Part shown: positions 17,850 through 58,758 of the stretch, in pieces
How the letters are laid out: each line of letters starts with the position of its first letter
Position numbering within the stretch: position 1 is the first letter of the stretch
Source of the DNA: an uncultured delta proteobacterium
GTDB lineage: Bacteria > Desulfobacterota > Desulfomonilia > UBA1062
NCBI GenBank assembly: GCA_963798485.1
Contig: CAWCTR010000032.1
Span: 18,984-82,983 of the forward strand
Direction of reading: 5' to 3'
DNA: 64,000 nucleotides
Notes under the pieces: model-generated
Database searches by the model: none
What the model was told of the DNA's origin: nothing
What the model saw: the letters and a program-made list of their open reading frames with translations, nothing else
Program-made: the position numbers and the translations under genes

Positions 17850-19508
17850 CTACCTGACGAGCCCTGCCTTGACAAACGCCTGATTAATAAGGTCACGGGC
17901 GCCTTCCTGCAGCTGCTTCAGGTGTTCGGCGCCTTTGAAGCTCTCTGCATAGACCTTGTAGATATCCTCCGTACCCGAAGGACGCGCTGCGAACCAGCCA
18001 CCAGCGGTCATTACCTTGATCCCGCCGATGGGGGCCTTATTGGCCGGGGCCTCGGTGAGGACGGATTGGATTGCATCCCCTGCCAAGTCCCCTTTTGCGA
18101 TAAGTCCCGGAGAGATCTTGCCCAGTACCGCCTTCTGGGCCGGGCTTGCCGGGACATCCGTACGTTCGTAGGCAAACGCGCCGAATTGCGATTCAAGCCC
18201 GTGATAGAGCTCGGATGGGTCCTTGCCCCGCACCGCCATCATCTCTGCGGCAAGGAGGTCCATAATTATGCCGTCCTTGTCCGTTGTCCACACCGTACCG
18301 TCCGTGCGCAGGAACGATGCACCGGCGCTCTCTTCGCCTCCGAAGCCCAGGGACCCATCAATAAGTCCCTTGACGAACCACTTGAACCCCACCGGCACCT
18401 CGACAAGCCGCCTGCCCAGAGAATGGGCAACCCGGTCGATCATGGAGCTGCTCACCAGGGTCTTGCCGACAGAGGCGTCTCTTCTCCACCTGTCCCTTGT
18501 TGCAAAAAGATATTCGATGGCAACGGCCAGGTAGTGGTTGGGATTCATGAGGCCGCCTGTCTTTGTTACTATGCCATGCCGGTCAAAGTCCGGGTCATTG
18601 CCGAAGGCAAGGTCGAAGCGGTCTCTCAGACCGATGAGGCCGGCCATGGCATAGGGCGAAGAGCAGTCCATCCTGATCTTGCCGTCATGATCCACGGTCA
18701 TGAACCCGAAGGTCGGGTCGGCCTTGCCGTGCATGAGCTCGATATCAAGCCCGTACCGCTCGGCTATATGCGGCCAGAAGGCAAAGCCCGCACCGCCCAG
18801 GGCATCGGAGCCCAGCTTAAGTCCTGCAGAAGAGACGGCATTCATGTTGACGATGCTGGAGAGCCCTTCCACATACGGGCCGATGTAATCATACAGGGTC
18901 GTGGTGGGCGCCTTGATGGCCCGCTCAAAGGGTATGCGCCTTACCGAGGCATTTCGGCCTTCAAGGATCTTGTTGGCCTTAAGGGCTATCCATGCAGTGA
19001 TATTCGTGTCGGCAGGCCCCCCTGAAGGAGGGTTATACTTGAAGCCCCCGTCTTCGGGTGGATTGTGGGACGGCGTCACCACAATGCCGTCTGAGAGCGG
19101 GCGTTGCCTGCCCTTGTTATAATCGAGTATTGCGTGCGAGATCACCGGTGTGGGGGTAAACCCGCCATCCTCCTGGATCATGACTGTTACGGCATTGGCT
19201 GCAAGGACCTCCAGGGCTGTCCGGAATGCCGGTTCGGAAAGCGCATGGGTATCCTTGCCCATGAACAGCGGCCCGTCAATGCCGAGCTCCTTCTTATGGT
19301 CGCAGATGGCCTGGGTGATGGCAAGGATATGGTCCTCATTAAAACCGTAAGAAAGAGAAGACCCGCGATGGCCTGAGGTGCCGAATGATACCCTGTGGGA
19401 AGCGATATTCATATCGGGATGCAATGAATAGTAGGCATCGATGAGCGCCTGCACATTTACAAGCATCTCTTTCGGCGCCGGTTTACCTGCAAGATGATGG
19501 ACTCCCAT
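17850..19508 (-). CDS. pgm: Phosphoglucomutase
   Basis: FGTSGHRG, TPSHNP, DPDFDR, GEESAG, RPSGTE. Confidence 0.95.
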   Translation of the reverse strand: MGVHHLAGKPAPKEMLVNVQALIDAYYSLHPDMNIASHRVSFGTSGHRGSSLSYGFNEDHILAITQAICDHKKELGIDGPLFMGKDTHALSEPAFRTALEVLAANAVTVMIQEDGGFTPTPVISHAILDYNKGRQRPLSDGIVVTPSHNPPEDGGFKYNPPSGGPADTNITAWIALKANKILEGRNASVRRIPFERAIKAPTTTLYDYIGPYVEGLSSIVNMNAVSSAGLKLGSDALGGAGFAFWPHIAERYGLDIELMHGKADPTFGFMTVDHDGKIRMDCSSPYAMAGLIGLRDRFDLAFGNDPDFDRHGIVTKTGGLMNPNHYLAVAIEYLFATRDRWRRDASVGKTLVSSSMIDRVAHSLGRRLVEVPVGFKWFVKGLIDGSLGFGGEESAGASFLRTDGTVWTTDKDGIIMDLLAAEMMAVRGKDPSELYHGLESQFGAFAYERTDVPASPAQKAVLGKISPGLIAKGDLAGDAIQSVLTEAPANKAPIGGIKVMTAGGWFAARPSGTEDIYKVYAESFKGAEHLKQLQEGARDLINQAFVKAGLVR

Positions 19509-48028: not shown

Positions 48029-49066
48029 TTAATATACCTTCTCCCCGGCCATGTCCTCAGGCGATATCTTTTGCCGGAACACCCGGTACACCCAGATCTT
48101 GTACGCTATGACAATGGGCACGAAGATGAGGGCGACGACAGTCATGATGGCCAGCGTGGTCCGGCTGGATGAAGAATTATAGATGGTCATGCTGTAGGCC
48201 GGGTCAAGGTTTGACGGGATCAGGTTGGGGAACAGCCCGATGACGCCGGTAAAGCTTATGGTTATGATAGTTACGCATGATGCGGCAAAGGCCTTCAATC
48301 CGGCCCCCTTAACCAGAAATACCTTGGTAAGGATGAGAGCGGCCACTGCGATGAGGGGGACAACCAAGAGGAGAGGGCTGCTCAGATAGTTCAGGTATAG
48401 CCCTGTAGCAAAGGCCGTATATGCGAGAAACAGCACGGCAACGATGAGCAGCACTGTCCATGCCTGCCCGGCAAAGGCCGACGCACGTCCGCTGAGATCA
48501 CCACCGGTCTTGACAGAGGCATAGATTGCCCCATGCACAACGAACAACATCACAAAAAGAATTCCGGTGAGGAGCCCGTACGGGTTCAACAGGGTGAACA
48601 GGTTCCCATGGTAGCCCGATACATCCATGGGCAGTCCCTTGAAGATGTTGCCGAAGGCCACACCGAGCAGCAGTGCGGGCAGGAAGCTGCCCAGGAGTAT
48701 GCCTATATCCCAAAGCCTCTTCCAGCCGGGGCTGTCTACCTTTCCCCTGAATTCCAGGGACACACCCCGGATAATCAGGGCAAACAGGAGCAGGAGCAGG
48801 GCGGTGTAGAGGTAGCTGAACATGAGGGCATATGTCGTGGGGAAGGCAGCGAAGGTCGCCCCGCCGGCAGTGAGGAGCCATACCTCGTTGCCGTTCCATA
48901 CCGGCCCGACGATAGCGACCATGGCCTGCTTCTCTCTTTCATTCTTTGCAAGAAAATTGTGGAGCATGCCGGTACCGAGCACGAAGCCGTCAAGCATAAA
49001 GTAGACCGCCCAGAGGAGGCCCCACAACGCAAACCAGGTAATCTGCAATATCTTTAGCGCGTCCAT
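48029..49066 (-). CDS. cydB: Cytochrome bd ubiquinol oxidase subunit II
   Basis: LDGF, GPVWNGNEVWL, FAAFP. Confidence 0.95.
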   Translation of the reverse strand: MDALKILQITWFALWGLLWAVYFMLDGFVLGTGMLHNFLAKNEREKQAMVAIVGPVWNGNEVWLLTAGGATFAAFPTTYALMFSYLYTALLLLLFALIIRGVSLEFRGKVDSPGWKRLWDIGILLGSFLPALLLGVAFGNIFKGLPMDVSGYHGNLFTLLNPYGLLTGILFVMLFVVHGAIYASVKTGGDLSGRASAFAGQAWTVLLIVAVLFLAYTAFATGLYLNYLSSPLLLVVPLIAVAALILTKVFLVKGAGLKAFAASCVTIITISFTGVIGLFPNLIPSNLDPAYSMTIYNSSSSRTTLAIMTVVALIFVPIVIAYKIWVYRVFRQKISPEDMAGEKVY

Positions 49067-49067
49067 G

Positions 49068-50441
49068 TCATACCTCCCTTGTCCTTGCGGTCATGACCCC
49101 CTGATCACCCTTTTCCGGACCCTGCTTGGCATATTTGACAAGGAGATACACGTCAACGATACCAAGGAGCGTGTACACTGCGGTAAAAGCGATAAGGGAA
49201 ATGGCCACCTGAGAAACAGAGATGGATTTGGACACCGCATCCGAGGTCTTGAGCAGGCCGTAGACGATCCAGGGCTGCCTGCCCACCTCGGCAACGATCC
49301 ACCCCAGCTGTACGCCGATATACGGACATGCTATCGCCAGGAGCATGATCTTGAGAAAGAGCGGGAAGGATTCCAGTTTGTCCTTTACCGAGAGATAGAC
49401 CGCCATGATGGAGAGCAGGAACATCACAATGCCCAGGACCACCATGACACGGAAGCTGTAGAAGGTGAGTCCCACCGGGGGCCTCAGGTCTTTCGGTATA
49501 TCCTTGAGCCCTTTGACCTCGGCATTAAGATTATGGTATGCGAGCAGGCTCGTCAGCTTGGGGATAGTGAGGAACTCGACTGAGTTTCTCTCATTATCGC
49601 TGTCCGGCACCACGATCAGACTCAACCCCGCCCCTTTCTGTGTGTCCCAGACGGCCTCCAGGGCAGCGAGCTTGGAAGGCTGCACCTTGGCGATCTCGAC
49701 GGCATGGAAGTCTCCGGTAACCATCACGAGAATCCCGGATACAAGCCCGAAGATCGCGGCTGCCTTGAAAGACCGTTTGAAGAGTTCCACCTCGTTTTTT
49801 CTGAGCAGGTGCCATGCCGCGACCCCGGTGACGAAAAAGGCCGCCAGGGTGTAACCGGACAGGACTGTGTGGAAAAACTTGATCCAGCCATAGGGGTTTG
49901 CCGCCACGGCCATGAAGTCGGCCATTTCCGCACGCCTTGATATGAGGGGATTCCCTGAGATCTCTACGATCCTTGAACCTACCGGGTTCTGCATCCAGCC
50001 GTTGGCCAAAAGAATCCACAGGGCCGAGAGATTGGTGGCAAAGGCCACGATGGTGATGGCCCATGCATGGGTCCTTCGGGATACCTTGTCCCAGCCGAAG
50101 ATCCACACCCCGATAAAGACCGACTCAAGGAAGAAGGCCAGCGTAGCCTCCACGGCCAATGGGGCCCCGAAGATGTCGCCTACATACTTGGAGTATTCGG
50201 CCCAGTTCATACCGAACTGGAACTCAAGCGTGATGCCCGTGACGATACCCAGGGCGAAATTGATGAGGAAGAGCTTACCCCAGAACCGTGCCATCCTCAG
50301 CCACATCTCGTCGAGAGTCTTCACGAAGCGCCATTCCATCCATGCCACGAGTACGGAAAGCCCCAGGGTGAGCGGTACAAAGATGAAGTGAAACATACTC
50401 GTAATGGCAAACTGCAGCCTGCTCAGCATCAATACATCCAT
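49068..50441 (-). CDS. cydA: Cytochrome bd ubiquinol oxidase subunit I
   Basis: SRLQFA, HFIFVP, QPSKLAALE, EVGRQPW. Confidence 0.96.
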   Translation of the reverse strand: MDVLMLSRLQFAITSMFHFIFVPLTLGLSVLVAWMEWRFVKTLDEMWLRMARFWGKLFLINFALGIVTGITLEFQFGMNWAEYSKYVGDIFGAPLAVEATLAFFLESVFIGVWIFGWDKVSRRTHAWAITIVAFATNLSALWILLANGWMQNPVGSRIVEISGNPLISRRAEMADFMAVAANPYGWIKFFHTVLSGYTLAAFFVTGVAAWHLLRKNEVELFKRSFKAAAIFGLVSGILVMVTGDFHAVEIAKVQPSKLAALEAVWDTQKGAGLSLIVVPDSDNERNSVEFLTIPKLTSLLAYHNLNAEVKGLKDIPKDLRPPVGLTFYSFRVMVVLGIVMFLLSIMAVYLSVKDKLESFPLFLKIMLLAIACPYIGVQLGWIVAEVGRQPWIVYGLLKTSDAVSKSISVSQVAISLIAFTAVYTLLGIVDVYLLVKYAKQGPEKGDQGVMTARTREV

Positions 50442-50546
50442 GCAGACCTCCTGCCAGATATATTACGGACAACGTCCTATTCTGGGACAACGTCCGTTAC
50501 TGGTTGTTCATTATGAAAATATAATCCTCATTCTGAGTAAATCTAC

Positions 50547-50960
50547 CTACCCGGCACTCAGTGTTTTCAGGGTGACCTCATCCAGAATGCCTTTTGTCAC
50601 TGCCTGGAGCCTCCTCCAGACAGGATGGACCGGGCAGGTATTTTGGAACGAGCACACACCTTCGCCCATGAGGCATTGGTTCGGCATGATCGGGCCTTCT
50701 ATGGCCTCCACGATCTCACGCAGGGTGATCCTTTCCGGCGGCCTCGCCAGCACAAAGCCCCCGTTCACCCCTCTTGTCGACTTAATTAGTCCTGTTTTGG
50801 CAAGCTCCTGGAAGATCTTGGCAAGGAACGTCTTGGGTGCTTCAACAGCACCGGCAATGTCTACGATCAGTGATATATTGCCATCTTTCTGCCTTGAGAG
50901 ATAAAGCATACCGCGGATTGCGTATTCGGCTTTTCTTGTCAACTCCATCATGCATAGCAC
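50547..50960 (-). CDS. Rrf2-family regulator with three Cys
   Basis: STRGVNGGFVLAR; C..C..C..H. Confidence 0.9.
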   Translation of the reverse strand: MLCMMELTRKAEYAIRGMLYLSRQKDGNISLIVDIAGAVEAPKTFLAKIFQELAKTGLIKSTRGVNGGFVLARPPERITLREIVEAIEGPIMPNQCLMGEGVCSFQNTCPVHPVWRRLQAVTKGILDEVTLKTLSAG

Positions 50961-51066
50961 CTATTCAGGATCATTATTATCTTTTATTAATAATTGCATC
51001 TTCATTTTTGTCAAGGGATCTTTTAATGGAAGTTCATGATCTATACAGTTCATGAACAGGTAAAGA

Positions 51067-51217
51067 CGGGCTGTTGCCCAAACCATAAAATGGCTTATGA
51101 GATCCTTCGCTACGCTCAGGATGACACGTAATCTCACTATGATGATTGTCATTCTGAACGAAGTGAAGAATCTCGTTTCTTCACATATTCACCTATGAGT
51201 ATTTGGGCAACAGCCCG
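51067..51217. mobile_element. 151-bp MITE-like element with a nested inverted REP pair
   Basis: 16-bp TIR CGGGCTGTTGCCCAAA/TTTGGGCAACAGCCCG, AAGA directly repeated on both flanks; inner GAGATCCTTCGCTACGCTCAGGATGACA...TGTCATTCTGAACGAAGTGAAGAATCTC. Confidence 0.7.
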
Positions 51218-51312
51218 AAGATTCTTGACACTTTGAAGGAAAGCATTTAAGCATTCGATATGTCGATGATAATCGAAATATACCGAGCGGCACACAGAGT
51301 TAGGGGATAGTT

Positions 51313-51648
51313 ATGCCAAAACAGGATACCAAGAGGGAACAGATCGACAAAGAACTCATCGTTGATGCTTTTAAAGCATTATCCAACAAAAACCGTCTTG
51401 CAATCTTCGAGCAGATCAGGATGGGCTGCTGCGGCAAGGCCGGACTCGGTGGTGACAGCCGCCTTGCAGTGTGCGCAGTTGCAGACGCCGTGAATATCGT
51501 CCCCTCAACGATCTCCCACCACATCAAGGAACTCAGGCGTGCACACCTGATCCGCTGCGAACGGCAGGGACAGTCGATCCTCTGAACAGCCAATGAAGAG
51601 ACCATCAGTTCGATGGTCCAGTACCTCACCGGCAAGGCCAAGTCCTGA
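51313..51648 (+). CDS. ArsR/SmtB regulator, probable selenoprotein (UGA at 51583-51585)
   Basis: FKALS...RLAIF, GCC, STISHHIKEL; TGA falls in the wing strand and the frame continues 20 codons (TANEETISSMVQYLTGKAKS); SECIS-like hairpin follows. Confidence 0.8.
51600..51618 (+). other. Putative bacterial SECIS hairpin
   Basis: GACCATC-AGTTC-GATGGTC; loop starts 21 nt after UGA with G as second loop base. Confidence 0.65.
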
Positions 51649-51742
51649 ACCGGATCAGCCCTAGCCGCAGCTTTAACGCTGCTCAGGTAAAGGTTTCTAA
51701 TTTTTTTTCTGAAAAAGCCTTGACAGTCATGCCTGAAGGTAT

Positions 51743-51778
51743 TATTAGATAATTCGATATATATCGAATTATCTAATA
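51743..51778. promoter_or_regulatory. 36-bp perfect palindrome, putative ArsR operator
   Basis: TATTAGATAATTCGATAT|ATATCGAATTATCTAATA, starting 17 bp after TTGACA (51720-51725). Confidence 0.75.
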
Positions 51779-51855
51779 TCCGTTGCCCGTTGCGCATGGG
51801 TGAAAAGGAATGGAACCATGATGCACGCTGAGGCACAAAGGGAAGGAGGTGTAAC

Positions 51856-52116
51856 ATGATGGACAATGCAGGAAAGGAAAAGATGTTCGGTCTCATGATG
51901 GACATGTGCTGCAAGGGCATGTCCGAAGAGGATAAGTCGAAGATGAAGGAACAGATGCTCTCATGCTGCAATAACATGGCATCCATGATGTCTCAATTCA
52001 AGGACATGTGCAAAGGTATGCCCGAGGGATTCAAGTCATGCTGCGGTCAGATGGGCTTCTCAGAATTCACGAAAGGCTGCTGTGGCAGAGAGGGCAGTGA
52101 AAAGGCAAAGGCCTGA
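51856..52116 (+). CDS. Small Cys/Met-rich protein (four CC pairs)
   Basis: SD AGGAGGT; MCCK, SCCN, SCCG, GCCG. Confidence 0.75.
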   Translation: MMDNAGKEKMFGLMMDMCCKGMSEEDKSKMKEQMLSCCNNMASMMSQFKDMCKGMPEGFKSCCGQMGFSEFTKGCCGREGSEKAKA

Positions 52117-52141
52117 TGCAGCGATGGCCATTGAGGTCACT

Positions 52142-52870
52142 ATGAGCAGGATTAAAGCCACTATGCTGATCTATGCAACCAGGTCTTTCGGTCTTGGTTC
52201 AATGATGCTGTTTTCCCTGTTTCTCTTCCTGGGCTCGTTCACCCTGATTGATCTTGGGCTGGACAGATCAAAGGCCCTGGCGGCTGATGCGCTCCTTTCC
52301 CTGCTCTTCTTTCTCCAGCACAGCATCATGGTCAGACAACCCATACGGAAGCGGCTCGCCGGGATCATCCCCGACATATTCTACAGCGCCTTCTATGCCT
52401 GTACATCAGGCATGGCCCTTCTCGTGGTGATGCTCCTGTGGCAGAAGACCCCGGCCCCTCTTTTTACAGCAGCGGGTGCATCATACTGGCTCCTTCGCAT
52501 GCTGTTTTTCCTGTGTATAGCAGGGTTTTCCTGGGGAAACAGGTCGCTGGGGTCATTCGATCCATTGGGGGTCAAGGCCATAAGTCGATACATGCGGGGA
52601 AAGTTATCCGTGCAGATGCCGCTGAAGGTCCGGGGCGCCTATCGATGGGTGAGGCATCCCCTTTACTTCTTTTCACTGATCATGTTCTGGTCCTGCCCTG
52701 TACTCACTGCCGACAGGCTGCTCTTCAACCTCATGTGGACAACCTGGATCATTACAGGCACGGTCCTTGAAGAGCGCGACCTTGTCAGTGAGTTCGGCGA
52801 TGGGTACCGGGAATACCAGAAAAGGGTACCCATGCTCCTCCCATACAAGCTGCCCGGCAAGGCGCCTTAA
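52142..52870 (+). CDS. Membrane methyltransferase, ICMT superfamily (MddA/nurim-like)
   Basis: FFLQHSIM, FDPLG, YRWVRHPLY, EERDL, YREYQKRVPMLLP. Confidence 0.8.
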   Translation: MSRIKATMLIYATRSFGLGSMMLFSLFLFLGSFTLIDLGLDRSKALAADALLSLLFFLQHSIMVRQPIRKRLAGIIPDIFYSAFYACTSGMALLVVMLLWQKTPAPLFTAAGASYWLLRMLFFLCIAGFSWGNRSLGSFDPLGVKAISRYMRGKLSVQMPLKVRGAYRWVRHPLYFFSLIMFWSCPVLTADRLLFNLMWTTWIITGTVLEERDLVSEFGDGYREYQKRVPMLLPYKLPGKAP

Positions 52871-56555: not shown

Positions 56556-56837
56556 ATGCGAGAGACATCAACCATTGATCCCCAGGAGAAGAACCCATCC
56601 ACGTTATTGGAACTGAAGCAGGGCGAGACGGCTGTCGTCACCGGGATCACCGGCGGCAGGACCGCCCGCGCCCGTATAGCAGGGTTCGGCATTTACGAAG
56701 GGAAGAGGATCCGCATGATCAAGGCGGCCCCCTTTCATGGACCGCTGCTCATTGAGGACACGGCTTCAGGCGCACGGACCATGATCGGCCGCGGCATGGC
56801 AGCCTCAGTGGAGGTAAGCCCTGAAAAAACCTCGTGA
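56556..56837 (+). CDS. feoA: Ferrous iron transport protein A
   Basis: LLELKQGE, GIYEG, APFHGP, IGRGMA. Confidence 0.88.
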   Translation: MRETSTIDPQEKNPSTLLELKQGETAVVTGITGGRTARARIAGFGIYEGKRIRMIKAAPFHGPLLIEDTASGARTMIGRGMAASVEVSPEKTS

Positions 56838-58758
56838 CGAGCTTGTCATCGCGCTCGCCGGCCAGCCCAACTGCGGCAAATCCACGCTTTTCAATGCAGT
56901 AGCAGGGTTCAAGGTGAATACCGGGAACTTTGCAGGCACTACGGTCACCTTTACCGAGACAAAGGTATTGCTCGAAGGCAGGACACTAAGGCTCATCGAC
57001 CTGCCCGGTACCTACTCCATCTCCTCCCACGACATCGCAGAGAAACAGGCCCGTGATTATCTGCTCTCAGGGAATGCGGACGTCATCATCAACGTGCTCG
57101 ATGCGTCGCTGCTGGAACGTTCACTGGAGCTCACCATGCAGCTCCTGGAGATGAACATCCCCATGGTGATCGGCCTGAACATGTTCGATGAGGCCCAGGC
57201 AAAGGGGATCGAGATCGATTTTGCCAAACTCAAGGCACTGACCGGCGTGGACGCCTGCCCGCTCGTGGCGGTCGAGGGCAGCGGCGTGCGCGAGCTCTTC
57301 GAGTCGGCCTTCAGGGCGGCCATGGAGGAGTTCAAACCGATAAAGCCCGTTTACGACCGCGACGTTGAAGAATGTATTGCCGACATCACGTCACGTTATC
57401 CCTCTAGCCTGAAGGACACCCTGAAGATGGATGAGCGGTTCGTGATCATCAGGCTCCTTGAGATGGATGAGGAGTTCGAGCGCATGGTTGGAACGGCCGA
57501 CAAGCCATTCCTGCACTATGTCCTTGAAAAGCGCCGGCAGCTGGCCGAGGTGCACAACTGGCCCGAGGCGGGTGTGTTCGAGTCGCACCGCCACGCGTAC
57601 GTGTTCGATCTCTTCGAACAGGTCGCCATCGTAAGGCACAAGCATGGCAGGAACATAAGGGAAAACATCGACCGCTTCATCATCAACCCTATCGGCGGCT
57701 TTGTTGCAATTGTCGGGCTGCTGTTCTTGATGTTCTTCGCATCGTTCAAGATGGGAGACTTCCTGACCGGCCTCATCGAAGCGCCGCTTGATGCATTGGG
57801 CCACAGGCTTACGGGCATGACCGGGGGGCTAACCGCCGTTGCCGTTTCAGGGCTTTACGGCGGACTCGTCTCCGGCGCGGGGATCGTGCTGCCCTACCTC
57901 GTCCCCCTGCTCATCCTCTTGGCCATCCTTGAGGACTCAGGCCTGCTGCCGAGGATCGCCTTCATGGTGGACGGCATCCTCCACCGGTTCGGCCTGCACG
58001 GCAAATCGGCCGTTCCCATCATCCTGGGCTACGGGTGCAACGTGCCGGCCATCATGGCCGCCCGCGGACTGGAGTACGAGCGCGACCGGGTGCTGACCAT
58101 GCTCATCATCCCGTTCATCGCCTGCTCGGCCAGGACAGTCATCATCCTGGCCCTGGCCGGCAGATACCTGGGCGCTGTCTACACCACCGCCATCTATGCC
58201 GGAAACATCCTGGTGGCGCTTATGGTATCGTTTGCCCTGTCGCGCCTTCAGGTGGACATGTCGCCCGGCATCATCATGGACGTGCCCCCGCTGAGGCGCC
58301 CCTACCCCGGCCTGGTGGCCTCAAAGGTGTGGTGGAGACTCAGGGAGTTCCTCGCCTTTGCCTGGCCTGTGATCGTAATATCGAGCCTGGCCCTTGCCTT
58401 TATCTCGCATGCGGGGCTGGATAAGCCGGTGAACGCCCTGCTGGCGCCCGTCACCTCGGGCATTTTGAGGCTCCCGGAGGCGACCGGCATCACCTTGTTC
58501 CTCGGCATCTTCCGCAAAGAGCTCACGCTCCTTATGCTGAACCAGGCACTCGGTGCCGCTGATGTCTCGACCATCCTGTCGCACGGACAGATACTCGTAC
58601 TCGTGGTCTTCACGGTGCTCTACATCCCCTGTGTGGCCACTATTTCGACGCTCTGGAAAGAAGGCGGGTGGAAGGTGGCCCTGTATTCCATCGCCCTGAA
58701 CACCACCGTGGCCCTCGTCGTGGCAGGCGGCATAGCCCATATGATAACCATGCTGTAA
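56821..58758 (+). CDS. feoB: Ferrous iron transport protein B (probable CTG start)
   Basis: GQPNCGKS lies upstream of the track's GTG; GNFAGTT, DLPG, GYGCNVP, PFIACSAR, YIPC. Confidence 0.93.
   Translation: MKKPRDELVIALAGQPNCGKSTLFNAVAGFKVNTGNFAGTTVTFTETKVLLEGRTLRLIDLPGTYSISSHDIAEKQARDYLLSGNADVIINVLDASLLERSLELTMQLLEMNIPMVIGLNMFDEAQAKGIEIDFAKLKALTGVDACPLVAVEGSGVRELFESAFRAAMEEFKPIKPVYDRDVEECIADITSRYPSSLKDTLKMDERFVIIRLLEMDEEFERMVGTADKPFLHYVLEKRRQLAEVHNWPEAGVFESHRHAYVFDLFEQVAIVRHKHGRNIRENIDRFIINPIGGFVAIVGLLFLMFFASFKMGDFLTGLIEAPLDALGHRLTGMTGGLTAVAVSGLYGGLVSGAGIVLPYLVPLLILLAILEDSGLLPRIAFMVDGILHRFGLHGKSAVPIILGYGCNVPAIMAARGLEYERDRVLTMLIIPFIACSARTVIILALAGRYLGAVYTTAIYAGNILVALMVSFALSRLQVDMSPGIIMDVPPLRRPYPGLVASKVWWRLREFLAFAWPVIVISSLALAFISHAGLDKPVNALLAPVTSGILRLPEATGITLFLGIFRKELTLLMLNQALGAADVSTILSHGQILVLVVFTVLYIPCVATISTLWKEGGWKVALYSIALNTTVALVVAGGIAHMITML

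Follow-up and report, generated by a model that had tools for sequence, protein, structure and literature searches.

Members of the ArsR/SmtB family dimerize through a C-terminal helix, α5, and in the solved structures their sensing sites lie in α3, α3N, α5 or the C-terminal region, with classical ArsR repressors using S3 sites for metalloids. The family includes SqrR and BigR (6o8o and 3pqj), ArsR-fold repressors that control sulfide-detoxifying genes and are switched by a covalent Cys-Cys chalcogen bridge, the two cysteines being located in α2 and α5 and not in the wing. Here we describe a gene on a 64,000-nucleotide stretch of DNA (the window) from an uncultured delta proteobacterium (GenBank assembly GCA_963798485.1, contig CAWCTR010000032.1, forward-strand positions 18,984 to 82,983), which occupies positions 51313 to 51648 of the window and which we believe, with a probability of about 0.8, to encode a genuine selenocysteine (Sec)-containing regulator of the ArsR family.

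Repeated exchange of Sec and Cys at a single column is the usual pattern of a selenoprotein. The literature covered here comprises the accessible parts of two reviews with family tables (2022 and 2026), the deep-Sep and BSepDB papers, the Haft preprint (10.1101/2022.07.06.499078) and a 2024 metallostasis review. In the two review tables, as far as they were accessible, the sole "regulatory" entry is an FmdB-family zinc-ribbon protein. No ArsR-type selenoprotein was found in the accessible parts of PMC13188914, PMC9312934, PMC12013277, PMC13326102, PMC8318568, PMC11672702 and the Haft preprint, nor in the supplements of PMC12013277 and PMC13326102, of which parts of the very long BSepDB file fell outside the scope. 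Full-text literature searches, with subscription papers and bioRxiv supplements outside their scope, did not return an ArsR-type or other winged-helix selenoprotein either.

RESULTS

An in-frame UGA within an ArsR-family gene

The gene and its parts are arranged as follows (window positions).

51313 to 51585, + strand: open reading frame (ORF) of 90 amino acids (aa), the last residues being ...RQGQSIL before the TGA at 51583-51585
51313 to 51648, + strand: full regulator coding sequence with UGA91 proposed as Sec, 111 aa, followed by the stop TGA at 51646-51648
51583 to 51585, + strand: in-frame UGA, proposed Sec codon 91, paired with Cys at the aligned codon among relatives
51586 to 51645, + strand: the 20 codons past the UGA, encoding the predicted end of wing strand β2 and helix α5
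51600 to 51618, + strand: hairpin resembling a selenocysteine insertion sequence (SECIS), with 7 perfect base pairs and loop AGUUC, its geometry fitting the constraints on bacterial SECIS (bSECIS) elements

With TGA read as Sec (U), the 20-codon extension translates as TANEETISSMVQYLTGKAKS in a frame that stays open to the second TGA, so that the sequence around codon 91 runs ...GQSIL-U-TANEETISSMVQYLTGK. The initial annotation of this DNA, in which the ORF halts at QGQSIL-TGA and read-through adds 20 residues to reach 111 aa, is exact on both counts. The product exceeds the curated cutoffs of ArsR/SmtB profiles by small margins: the ArsR/SmtB metalloregulator model NF033788 is matched with 60.5 bits against a cutoff of 55 over residues 17-101, a match that crosses the UGA, and the Pfam families PF12840 (HTH_20) and PF01022 (HTH_5) are matched by the 111-aa product with 27.6 bits (cutoff, 27) and 23.5 bits (cutoff, 22), respectively. 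The nearest solved sequence is Staphylococcus aureus CzrA (E ~1e-7). The BigR equivalog model NF040642, which marks the SqrR/BigR persulfide sensors, is not matched (17.4 bits against a cutoff of 155), and NCBIfam release 20 has no dedicated model for a Sec-type regulator. An antisense ORF that covers the whole regulator (51300-51986, − strand, 228 aa) is unlikely to be a gene; the corresponding open stretch spans 68 to 171 codons in relatives.

Pairing of UGA with Cys and conservation past the UGA

A protein search over 5.8 billion proteins gave 650 candidates, 648 of them relatives at E ≤ 0.001. Among the 120 best protein relatives, 116 (including the window's own ORF) end exactly before codon 91, three have Cys at this position and one has Trp; the four that read on continue ...EET(I/V)..MV.YLTG... 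The short forms carry the names of ordinary ArsR-family regulators of 89 aa in NCBI and JGI, the public pipelines annotating 89 to 90 aa.

Furthermore, a genome scan with one genome per species yielded 600 candidate stretches, of which 484 were confirmed and the best 80 were used as loci. Across the window and these 80 loci, codon 91 aligns with TGA 22 times (21 loci besides the window), with the Cys codons TGC or TGT 58 times and with GCG once; neither TAA nor TAG occurs. The homologues therefore pair Cys with UGA, as had been anticipated, and do not show the pattern expected of a simple nonsense mutation, with Trp or another residue in homologues, Trp being present in a single metagenomic protein. 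Desulfomonilia, Syntrophaceae and Smithella all have TGA forms, as do metagenome-assembled genomes (MAGs) carrying the label delta proteobacterium or Bacteriovoracaceae and four MAGs of Spirochaetota/Leptospirales, so that two phyla, Thermodesulfobacteriota and Spirochaetota, are represented. One of them, the regulator of a long-read MAG (L003:5969-6331), has its N-terminal half out of frame through a frameshift or assembly error while the TGA region is intact, and it was excluded from the fold alignment and the tree.

With respect to the sequence past the UGA, the encoded peptide is conserved among the TGA loci (TANEETISSMVRYLTG / QPVEETIRMMVEYLTGD / VVNEETVSLMVRYLTGKD), and synonymous codons vary at the conserved residues 96, 102, 104, 105 and 106. 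Amino acids that are kept while synonymous sites vary are what is predicted if that frame is translated. In a maximum-likelihood tree of 28 rows in which column 91 was masked, the Cys forms P0054/P0056, L007 and P0052, as well as the Trp form P0059, are nested separately within the TGA clade, and the well-supported branches require at least three changes of state at codon 91. The Trp form (TGG, one base from TGA) is a single cluster of two member sequences from one 714-bp contig and stands beside a TGA form (L012) in the tree; Sec may truly have been lost here, or the sequence may contain an error.

A conserved hairpin 3′ of the UGA

The hairpin starts 14 nt past the UGA and consists of a 5′ arm GACCATC (51600-51606), a loop AGTTC (51607-51611) and a 3′ arm GATGGTC (51612-51618), the distance from the UGA to the first loop base being 21 nt. 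The perfect 7-bp stem, the loop AGUUC and the 21-nt spacing given in the initial annotation are thus all borne out. A 2026 review (PMC13188914), in its accessible part, defines bSECIS elements by a loop of 3 to 9 nt, a stem of 4 to 16 bp, a G in the first two loop positions, a distance of 16 to 37 nt from the UGA and a minimum free energy (MFE) of −7.5 kcal/mol or lower. The window hairpin satisfies every one of these constraints, with 7 bp, a 5-nt loop, 21 nt and an MFE of −10.3 kcal/mol.

Across the relatives, a stem of 6 to 8 bp with a loop starting 20 to 22 nt after the UGA is found in all 21 TGA genes that have at least 60 nt downstream (L002, where the contig ends too early, was dropped from this count), so that close relatives do retain both the UGA and the hairpin. 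A G stands at loop position 1 or 2 in every one of these genes, the loops being AGUUC, GGA, GUC, AGGUC or CGGGGUU. Among the 59 non-TGA loci of the best 80, only the closest Cys form, L007, shares the hairpin, the others showing weaker stems at scattered positions, and the mean hairpin MFE is −9.4 kcal/mol for TGA versus −6.0 kcal/mol for non-TGA loci (Mann-Whitney, p = 2e-6). In the 21-sequence alignment, which holds 20 distinct sequences, 93.6% of cells are paired, a share that drops to 57.9% or less once the 3′ partners are shifted along. The outermost pair is GC in eight, AU in four and CG in one of the 20 rows and unpaired in the remaining seven, and one inner stem pair alternates between AU and GU. 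In addition, wobble positions in the inner stem are frozen, with Thr97 encoded by ACC in 19 of 19 and Ile98 by ATC in 14 of 14 distinct rows, versus two to four codons for each of the other conserved Thr (66, 88 and 106) and Ile (62, 67 and 89) residues. For a hairpin that is conserved and compatible with a SECIS element, this suggests a constraint at the RNA level. The window gave no Rfam match at gathering scores; around the hairpin, Rfam at E ≤ 10 returned three snoRNA/miRNA matches at chance level, which were discarded.

Predicted fold and candidate sensory site

An AlphaFold2 model was built from a 76-sequence alignment, 5 of the 80 loci having been excluded as truncated, frameshifted or overextended. 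The mean predicted local distance difference test (pLDDT) score is 75.8, with a mean of 90 for residues 91-100 and a disordered loop at 40-50 (pLDDT < 50). The model has helices at 13-23, 26-37, 53-60 and 64-76, strands at 80-85 and 88-93, and a helix at 95-106, and is thereby a winged helix-turn-helix with a C-terminal α5, for which read-through of the UGA is needed. Its best PDB matches by Foldseek are all ArsR/SmtB proteins, namely NolR, CzrA, SrnR, AfArsR, CgArsR, CadC, HlyU, SqrR and BigR, with template modeling (TM) scores of 0.57 to 0.70. Because the residues past the UGA make up the last part of the wing and all of α5, the 90-residue product would be without α5.

In the modeled wing, a two-residue turn at 86-87 places residue 82 across from residue 91, and a short bridge at 51-52 precedes α3, with Cys54 at the start of this helix. 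Cys54, Cys82 and Cys/Sec91 are kept in 19 of 19 rows of the close clade, so that three chalcogen residues (C54, C82 and U91) are invariant in the Sec clade, their proximity being judged by the register of 82 versus 91. Of 57 remote relatives, 56 have Cys91 and none has Cys82, and all 57 have a Cys no more than four columns away from Cys54. The statement in the initial annotation that many ArsR proteins have Cys at this position therefore holds for the subfamily (Cys in 56 of 57 remote relatives) but does not extend to the family in general, CzrA having Tyr. The Gly-Cys-Cys motif pointed out there is present (C39, C40) but poorly kept, with C39 in 1 and C40 in 2 of 19 close relatives.

Palindromes and the downstream operon

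The regulator gene is flanked by the following features.

51743 to 51778, no strand assigned: perfect 36-bp palindrome with 18-nt arms, 100% complementary and without a gap, candidate operator of the downstream genes
51254 to 51267, no strand assigned: operator-like motif TTCGATATGTCGAT, candidate autoregulation site, about 50 nt upstream of the regulator start codon
51856 to 52116, + strand: Cys/Met-rich small protein of 86 aa with four CC pairs, the first gene past the palindrome
52082 to 52870, + strand: MddA-like membrane methyltransferase (NF045656 match), its true start probably lying downstream of the GTG at 52082

Several further TGA loci have related AT-rich palindromes with a TTCGA(A/T)AT core 100 to 130 nt past the stop codon, among them long perfect ones at L014:6444-6481 and, with 44 bp, at L018:6436-6479 and L022:3514-3557 (Spirochaetota). 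The motif upstream of the regulator is a weaker copy of the palindrome, and a similar motif lies at the same offset, 386 to 391 nt before the stop, in L001, L003, L014, L018 and L022, and in L002, where the gene is cut short, 344 nt before the contig end. The position of these sites is kept from Desulfomonilia to Spirochaetota, and they are likely to be operators. A TTGACA hexamer, read by eye, is found at 51720-51725, 17 nt before the 36-bp palindrome, and a promoter and terminator scan of 51000-52200 made no calls.

The 86-aa Cys/Met-rich protein has no match in Pfam or NCBIfam. Local tblastn searches place a homologue of it downstream of the regulator in 10 of 22 close loci, and a homologue of the methyltransferase downstream on the same strand in 12 of 22, with neither being found in any of 58 remote loci. 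Among the downstream homologues that were tested, those of L001, L006, L009, L019 and L021 match MddA (65 to 136 bits) and that of L016 matches an isoprenylcysteine methyltransferase model. MddA methylates H2S and methanethiol, according to the accessible parts of PMC11445057 and PMC12904073, and a text search for literature on MddA together with ArsR found none.

We also observe that the small-protein homologues of two Syntrophaceae-type loci have a TGA (L006:6994-6996 and L011:1145-1147) where their sisters L010, L012 and L013 have TGT or TGC, and that this TGA falls in the C-terminal motif ...DQAC[C/TGA]AEKA. Here the operon may have another Sec site, in the form of a CU motif, or the two proteins may simply end five residues sooner; in L006, a 1-nt indel directly after the TGA points to a plain stop there.

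Genome context and use of TGA in the window

Elsewhere in the window TGA is an ordinary stop, with the aconitase, cydA and EmrB genes ending on it and aconitase and EmrB aligning to their family models nearly to the last residue; a global reassignment of UGA is ruled out by these TGA-terminated genes and near-complete model matches. ARAGORN found no tRNA in the 22 close loci. In the accessible part of the Haft preprint (10.1101/2022.07.06.499078), at least one selenoprotein is reported for Desulfomonile tiedjei, a relative of this class (Desulfomonilia), and selenoproteins are reported in Syntrophobacter and in spirochaetes, which lends indirect support to Sec insertion.

Upstream of the regulator, on the opposite strand, are genes for an Rrf2-family regulator and cytochrome bd oxidase subunits I and II (48029-50960). 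The closest relative, a Desulfomonilia MAG (L001) with a regulator that is 79 to 80% identical, shares the opposite-strand upstream Rrf2 and cytochrome bd genes (L001:3930-5791), subunit II being confirmed in the window alone; this shared arrangement suggests Desulfomonilia as the class of origin of the window. At 56556-57053, a 93-codon ORF before feoB ends at a TGA that is followed by 72 further open codons; the FeoB match begins at profile position 21, and gene starts near this region may therefore be mis-set.

Remote Cys-form relatives

Neighboring genes were examined for 28 remote loci, with the nearest 76 of 135 flanking ORFs being scanned, and an arsenic-type context was observed in 5 of the 28 (L023, L027, L038, L061 and L032). 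In L023 (1109-4252) and L027 (4828-7997), the regulator lies between an upstream ACR3 arsenite pump (454 bits; cutoff, 282.8) and a downstream arsenite methyltransferase (371 bits; cutoff, 263). L038 (6566-7450) and L061 (6337-8003) adjoin an arsenite methyltransferase, L061 also adjoining a MIP channel, and in L032 an SBF-type transporter, not confirmed to be ACR3, lies upstream. These ars-linked relatives show 33 to 45% identity by tblastn and have a CC..C motif in the α2-α3 loop, which is absent from the Sec clade, and no Cys82. No ars genes were found in the window neighborhood or in the flanks of the 22 close loci, although such genes would be expected beside an As(III)-responsive ArsR. 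Elsewhere among the remote relatives, the neighbors are an EFR1 ferredoxin, aldo/keto reductases and MBL-fold proteins in Firmicutes and an old-yellow-enzyme-type reductase in the Marinobacter-type loci L060 and L065. The wider family looks like a group of regulators that sense thiophilic compounds through Cys, arsenite being one context that is proven.

DISCUSSION

Evidence for and against a selenoprotein

The pairing of UGA with Cys, the conserved tail past the UGA that appears to be translated, and the hairpin in 21 of 21 TGA genes all support the interpretation of the initial annotation that this gene encodes a selenoprotein. Several observations weigh against it. In the window, NCBIfam models found no selA, selB or selD among 56 ORFs, ARAGORN found no tRNA and hence no tRNA-Sec, and no second convincing gene with an in-frame UGA was found, so that the ability of the organism to insert Sec is assumed. 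One relative (P0059) has Trp at the Sec/Cys site. The hairpin is unremarkable when folded as a single sequence (MFE, −14.3 kcal/mol; z = −0.60; 48 of 200 shuffles equal), for which reason its weight rests on comparison. The TGA genes form one clade, which makes the hairpin contrast between TGA and Cys forms phylogenetically nonindependent. Only the outermost pair covaries, and this is the pair that is unpaired in 7 of 20 rows; RNAalifold, unprompted, recovers the same six inner pairs with 0 compensatory changes in them. Synonymous-site entropy, pooled over the four stem codons that could be scored, shows no significant difference (p = 0.12), and since the stem overlaps a conserved peptide (E-T-I/V-x-x-M-V), its conservation is partly at the protein level. 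With covariation statistics this weak, the case for the hairpin leans on its conservation, on the invariant wobble positions and on the covariation of a single outer pair. Further points of this kind are that the modeled position of Sec91 in β2, opposite Cys82 in β1 and near Cys54, is taken from the secondary-structure register, and that the methyltransferase matches the methanethiol S-methyltransferase model NF045656 (E = 3.9e-38) with 131 bits, below the 270-bit cutoff.

That the UGA is a true stop, yielding a 90-residue protein without α5 or a pseudogene, with the hairpin acting, for example, as an attenuator or mRNA-stability element, nevertheless seems to us highly improbable. Public annotation does give the 89- to 90-aa form, the window holds no Sec machinery and the hairpin alone is not significant, but in 22 sequences drawn from two phyla the stop is TGA without exception, with no TAA or TAG, the very same codon encodes Cys in homologues, and the next 20 codons keep their amino acids despite wobble changes and end in a normal stop, forming an α5 that is included in the family model and in solved relatives; a pseudogene, in particular, would not stay intact in 116 database clusters. 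Read-through of the UGA without selenium, by near-cognate Trp or Cys decoding or another recoding signal with the hairpin as a stimulator, would accommodate the relative with TGG at the site and the unverified Sec machinery. We give it very little credence, as Cys in 58 of 59 non-UGA loci is the mark that Sec/Cys exchange leaves, the hairpin has the geometry of a bSECIS element, and Trp is confined to one cluster, which in the tree is nested next to a TGA form; selenoproteins have, moreover, been reported in deltaproteobacteria and spirochaetes (accessible part of the Haft preprint).

A different question is what such a selenoprotein would sense. The initial annotation proposed a metalloid or redox sensor; remote Cys-form relatives do lie in arsenic operons, whereas the Sec clade adjoins an MddA-like methyltransferase. 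One possibility, which we hold tentatively, is that As(III), Sb(III), Hg(II) or a similar soft metalloid or metal is bound by Sec91, Cys82 and Cys54 in a three-coordinate S2Se site, much like the S3 sites of classical ArsR repressors, the downstream proteins then handling that metalloid. It would agree with the NF033788 metalloregulator match above cutoff, with the arsenic contexts of remote Cys-form relatives (5 of the 28 loci examined), with exactly three chalcogen ligands being invariant in the Sec clade and with a Cys/Met-rich first downstream gene. It agrees less well with the 22 close loci, none of which was found to have an adjoining ars gene, with the ars-linked relatives, which unlike the Sec clade have an extra CC...C loop motif and are without Cys82, and with the regulated enzyme, which resembles a sulfide/methanethiol methyltransferase and not ArsM.

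A proposed mechanism

For the Sec-containing regulator that we favor, we infer the following course of events. Sec would be inserted at UGA91 in a SelB-dependent manner, directed by the hairpin 14 nt downstream as its SECIS element, and its insertion would complete a 111-residue winged-helix repressor in which α5 makes the dimer. The dimer would probably occupy the 36-bp palindrome ahead of the downstream operon, as well as the related site in its own promoter. A thiophilic species would then react with the low-pKa selenol of Sec91, giving an Se-S or Se-X-S bridge from Sec91 to Cys82 or Cys54, or would be coordinated by all three residues, and the resulting strain on the wing and the α3/αR unit would release the DNA and switch on the Cys/Met-rich protein and the methyltransferase.

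Our preferred effector would be a reactive chalcogenide that the downstream methyltransferase could act on (sulfane sulfur, sulfide/methanethiol or a selenium analogue), because regulators usually sense the substrate of their operon and ArsR-fold persulfide sensors exist. A soft metalloid such as As(III) is a close second, binding of the As(III) type being nearly as likely because of the ars-linked relatives. More speculatively, and in our opinion improbably, the gene may act as a selenium-gated switch, with the repressor being completed only when Sec-tRNA is present and the same Sec also sensing reactive chalcogen or metalloid species; since termination at UGA91 leaves no α5, the short product should be inactive. 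If this were true, one small gene would tie the expression of a methyltransferase that volatilizes such species to both selenium supply and chalcogenide stress, and it would be the first transcription factor for which synthesis and sensing both depend on Sec.

If Sec is inserted, the regulator would be a selenoprotein of a new functional class, a DNA-binding transcription factor, relative to the catalogues searched. More than 100 database clusters from anaerobic Thermodesulfobacteriota and Spirochaetota would then be annotated about 20 residues short and need correction. Such a protein would also offer a natural Sec-for-Cys swap in the sensory site of a well-understood scaffold, for both metal and redox sensing, with the natural Cys and Trp variants within the same clade as ready comparators, and it points to an uncharacterized operon of bacteria from sulfidic habitats, consisting of the Cys/Met-rich protein and the MddA-like methyltransferase.

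Comparison with known systems

The regulator has the α1-α2-α3-αR-β1-β2-α5 fold of ArsR/SmtB proteins in the predicted model, with TM scores of 0.6 to 0.7 to CzrA (1r1u), AfArsR (6j05), CgArsR (6j0e), SrnR (7p6f) and NolR (4omy), and like them it is small and lies beside a palindromic site. Unlike CzrA, which has Gly, Ala (β1) and Tyr (wing strand β2) at the positions of Cys54, Cys82 and Sec91, it has chalcogen residues at all three, and unlike the solved ArsR/SmtB proteins it has an 11-residue insertion between α2 and α3. The candidate Cys54/Cys82/Sec91 site differs from the sensing sites of the solved proteins. With respect to SqrR and BigR (TM, ~0.60), the proposed Sec-Cys bridge together with a sulfide/methanethiol-type methyltransferase would be similar in spirit, whereas these two repressors contain no selenium, unlike the regulator proposed here.

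LysR_Se and HrsM link selenium status to transcription, as is proposed here, but, from the accessible part of PMC9312934, they belong to the LysR family, have no Sec residue and regulate selenoprotein genes rather than a methyltransferase operon. With bacterial selenoproteins (FdhA and the families of Haft and of Zhang), the gene shares the UGA/Cys pair, a bSECIS-type hairpin, shortened database entries and an occurrence in anaerobic deltaproteobacteria and spirochaetes. The selenoprotein families listed in the literature covered here are enzymes, redox proteins, transporters and proteins of unknown function, with no DNA-binding transcription factor among them. Taken at the level of sequence, the gene thus appears to encode an ArsR/SmtB sensor with Sec as its key residue and, by standard criteria, to represent a new selenoprotein family as well.

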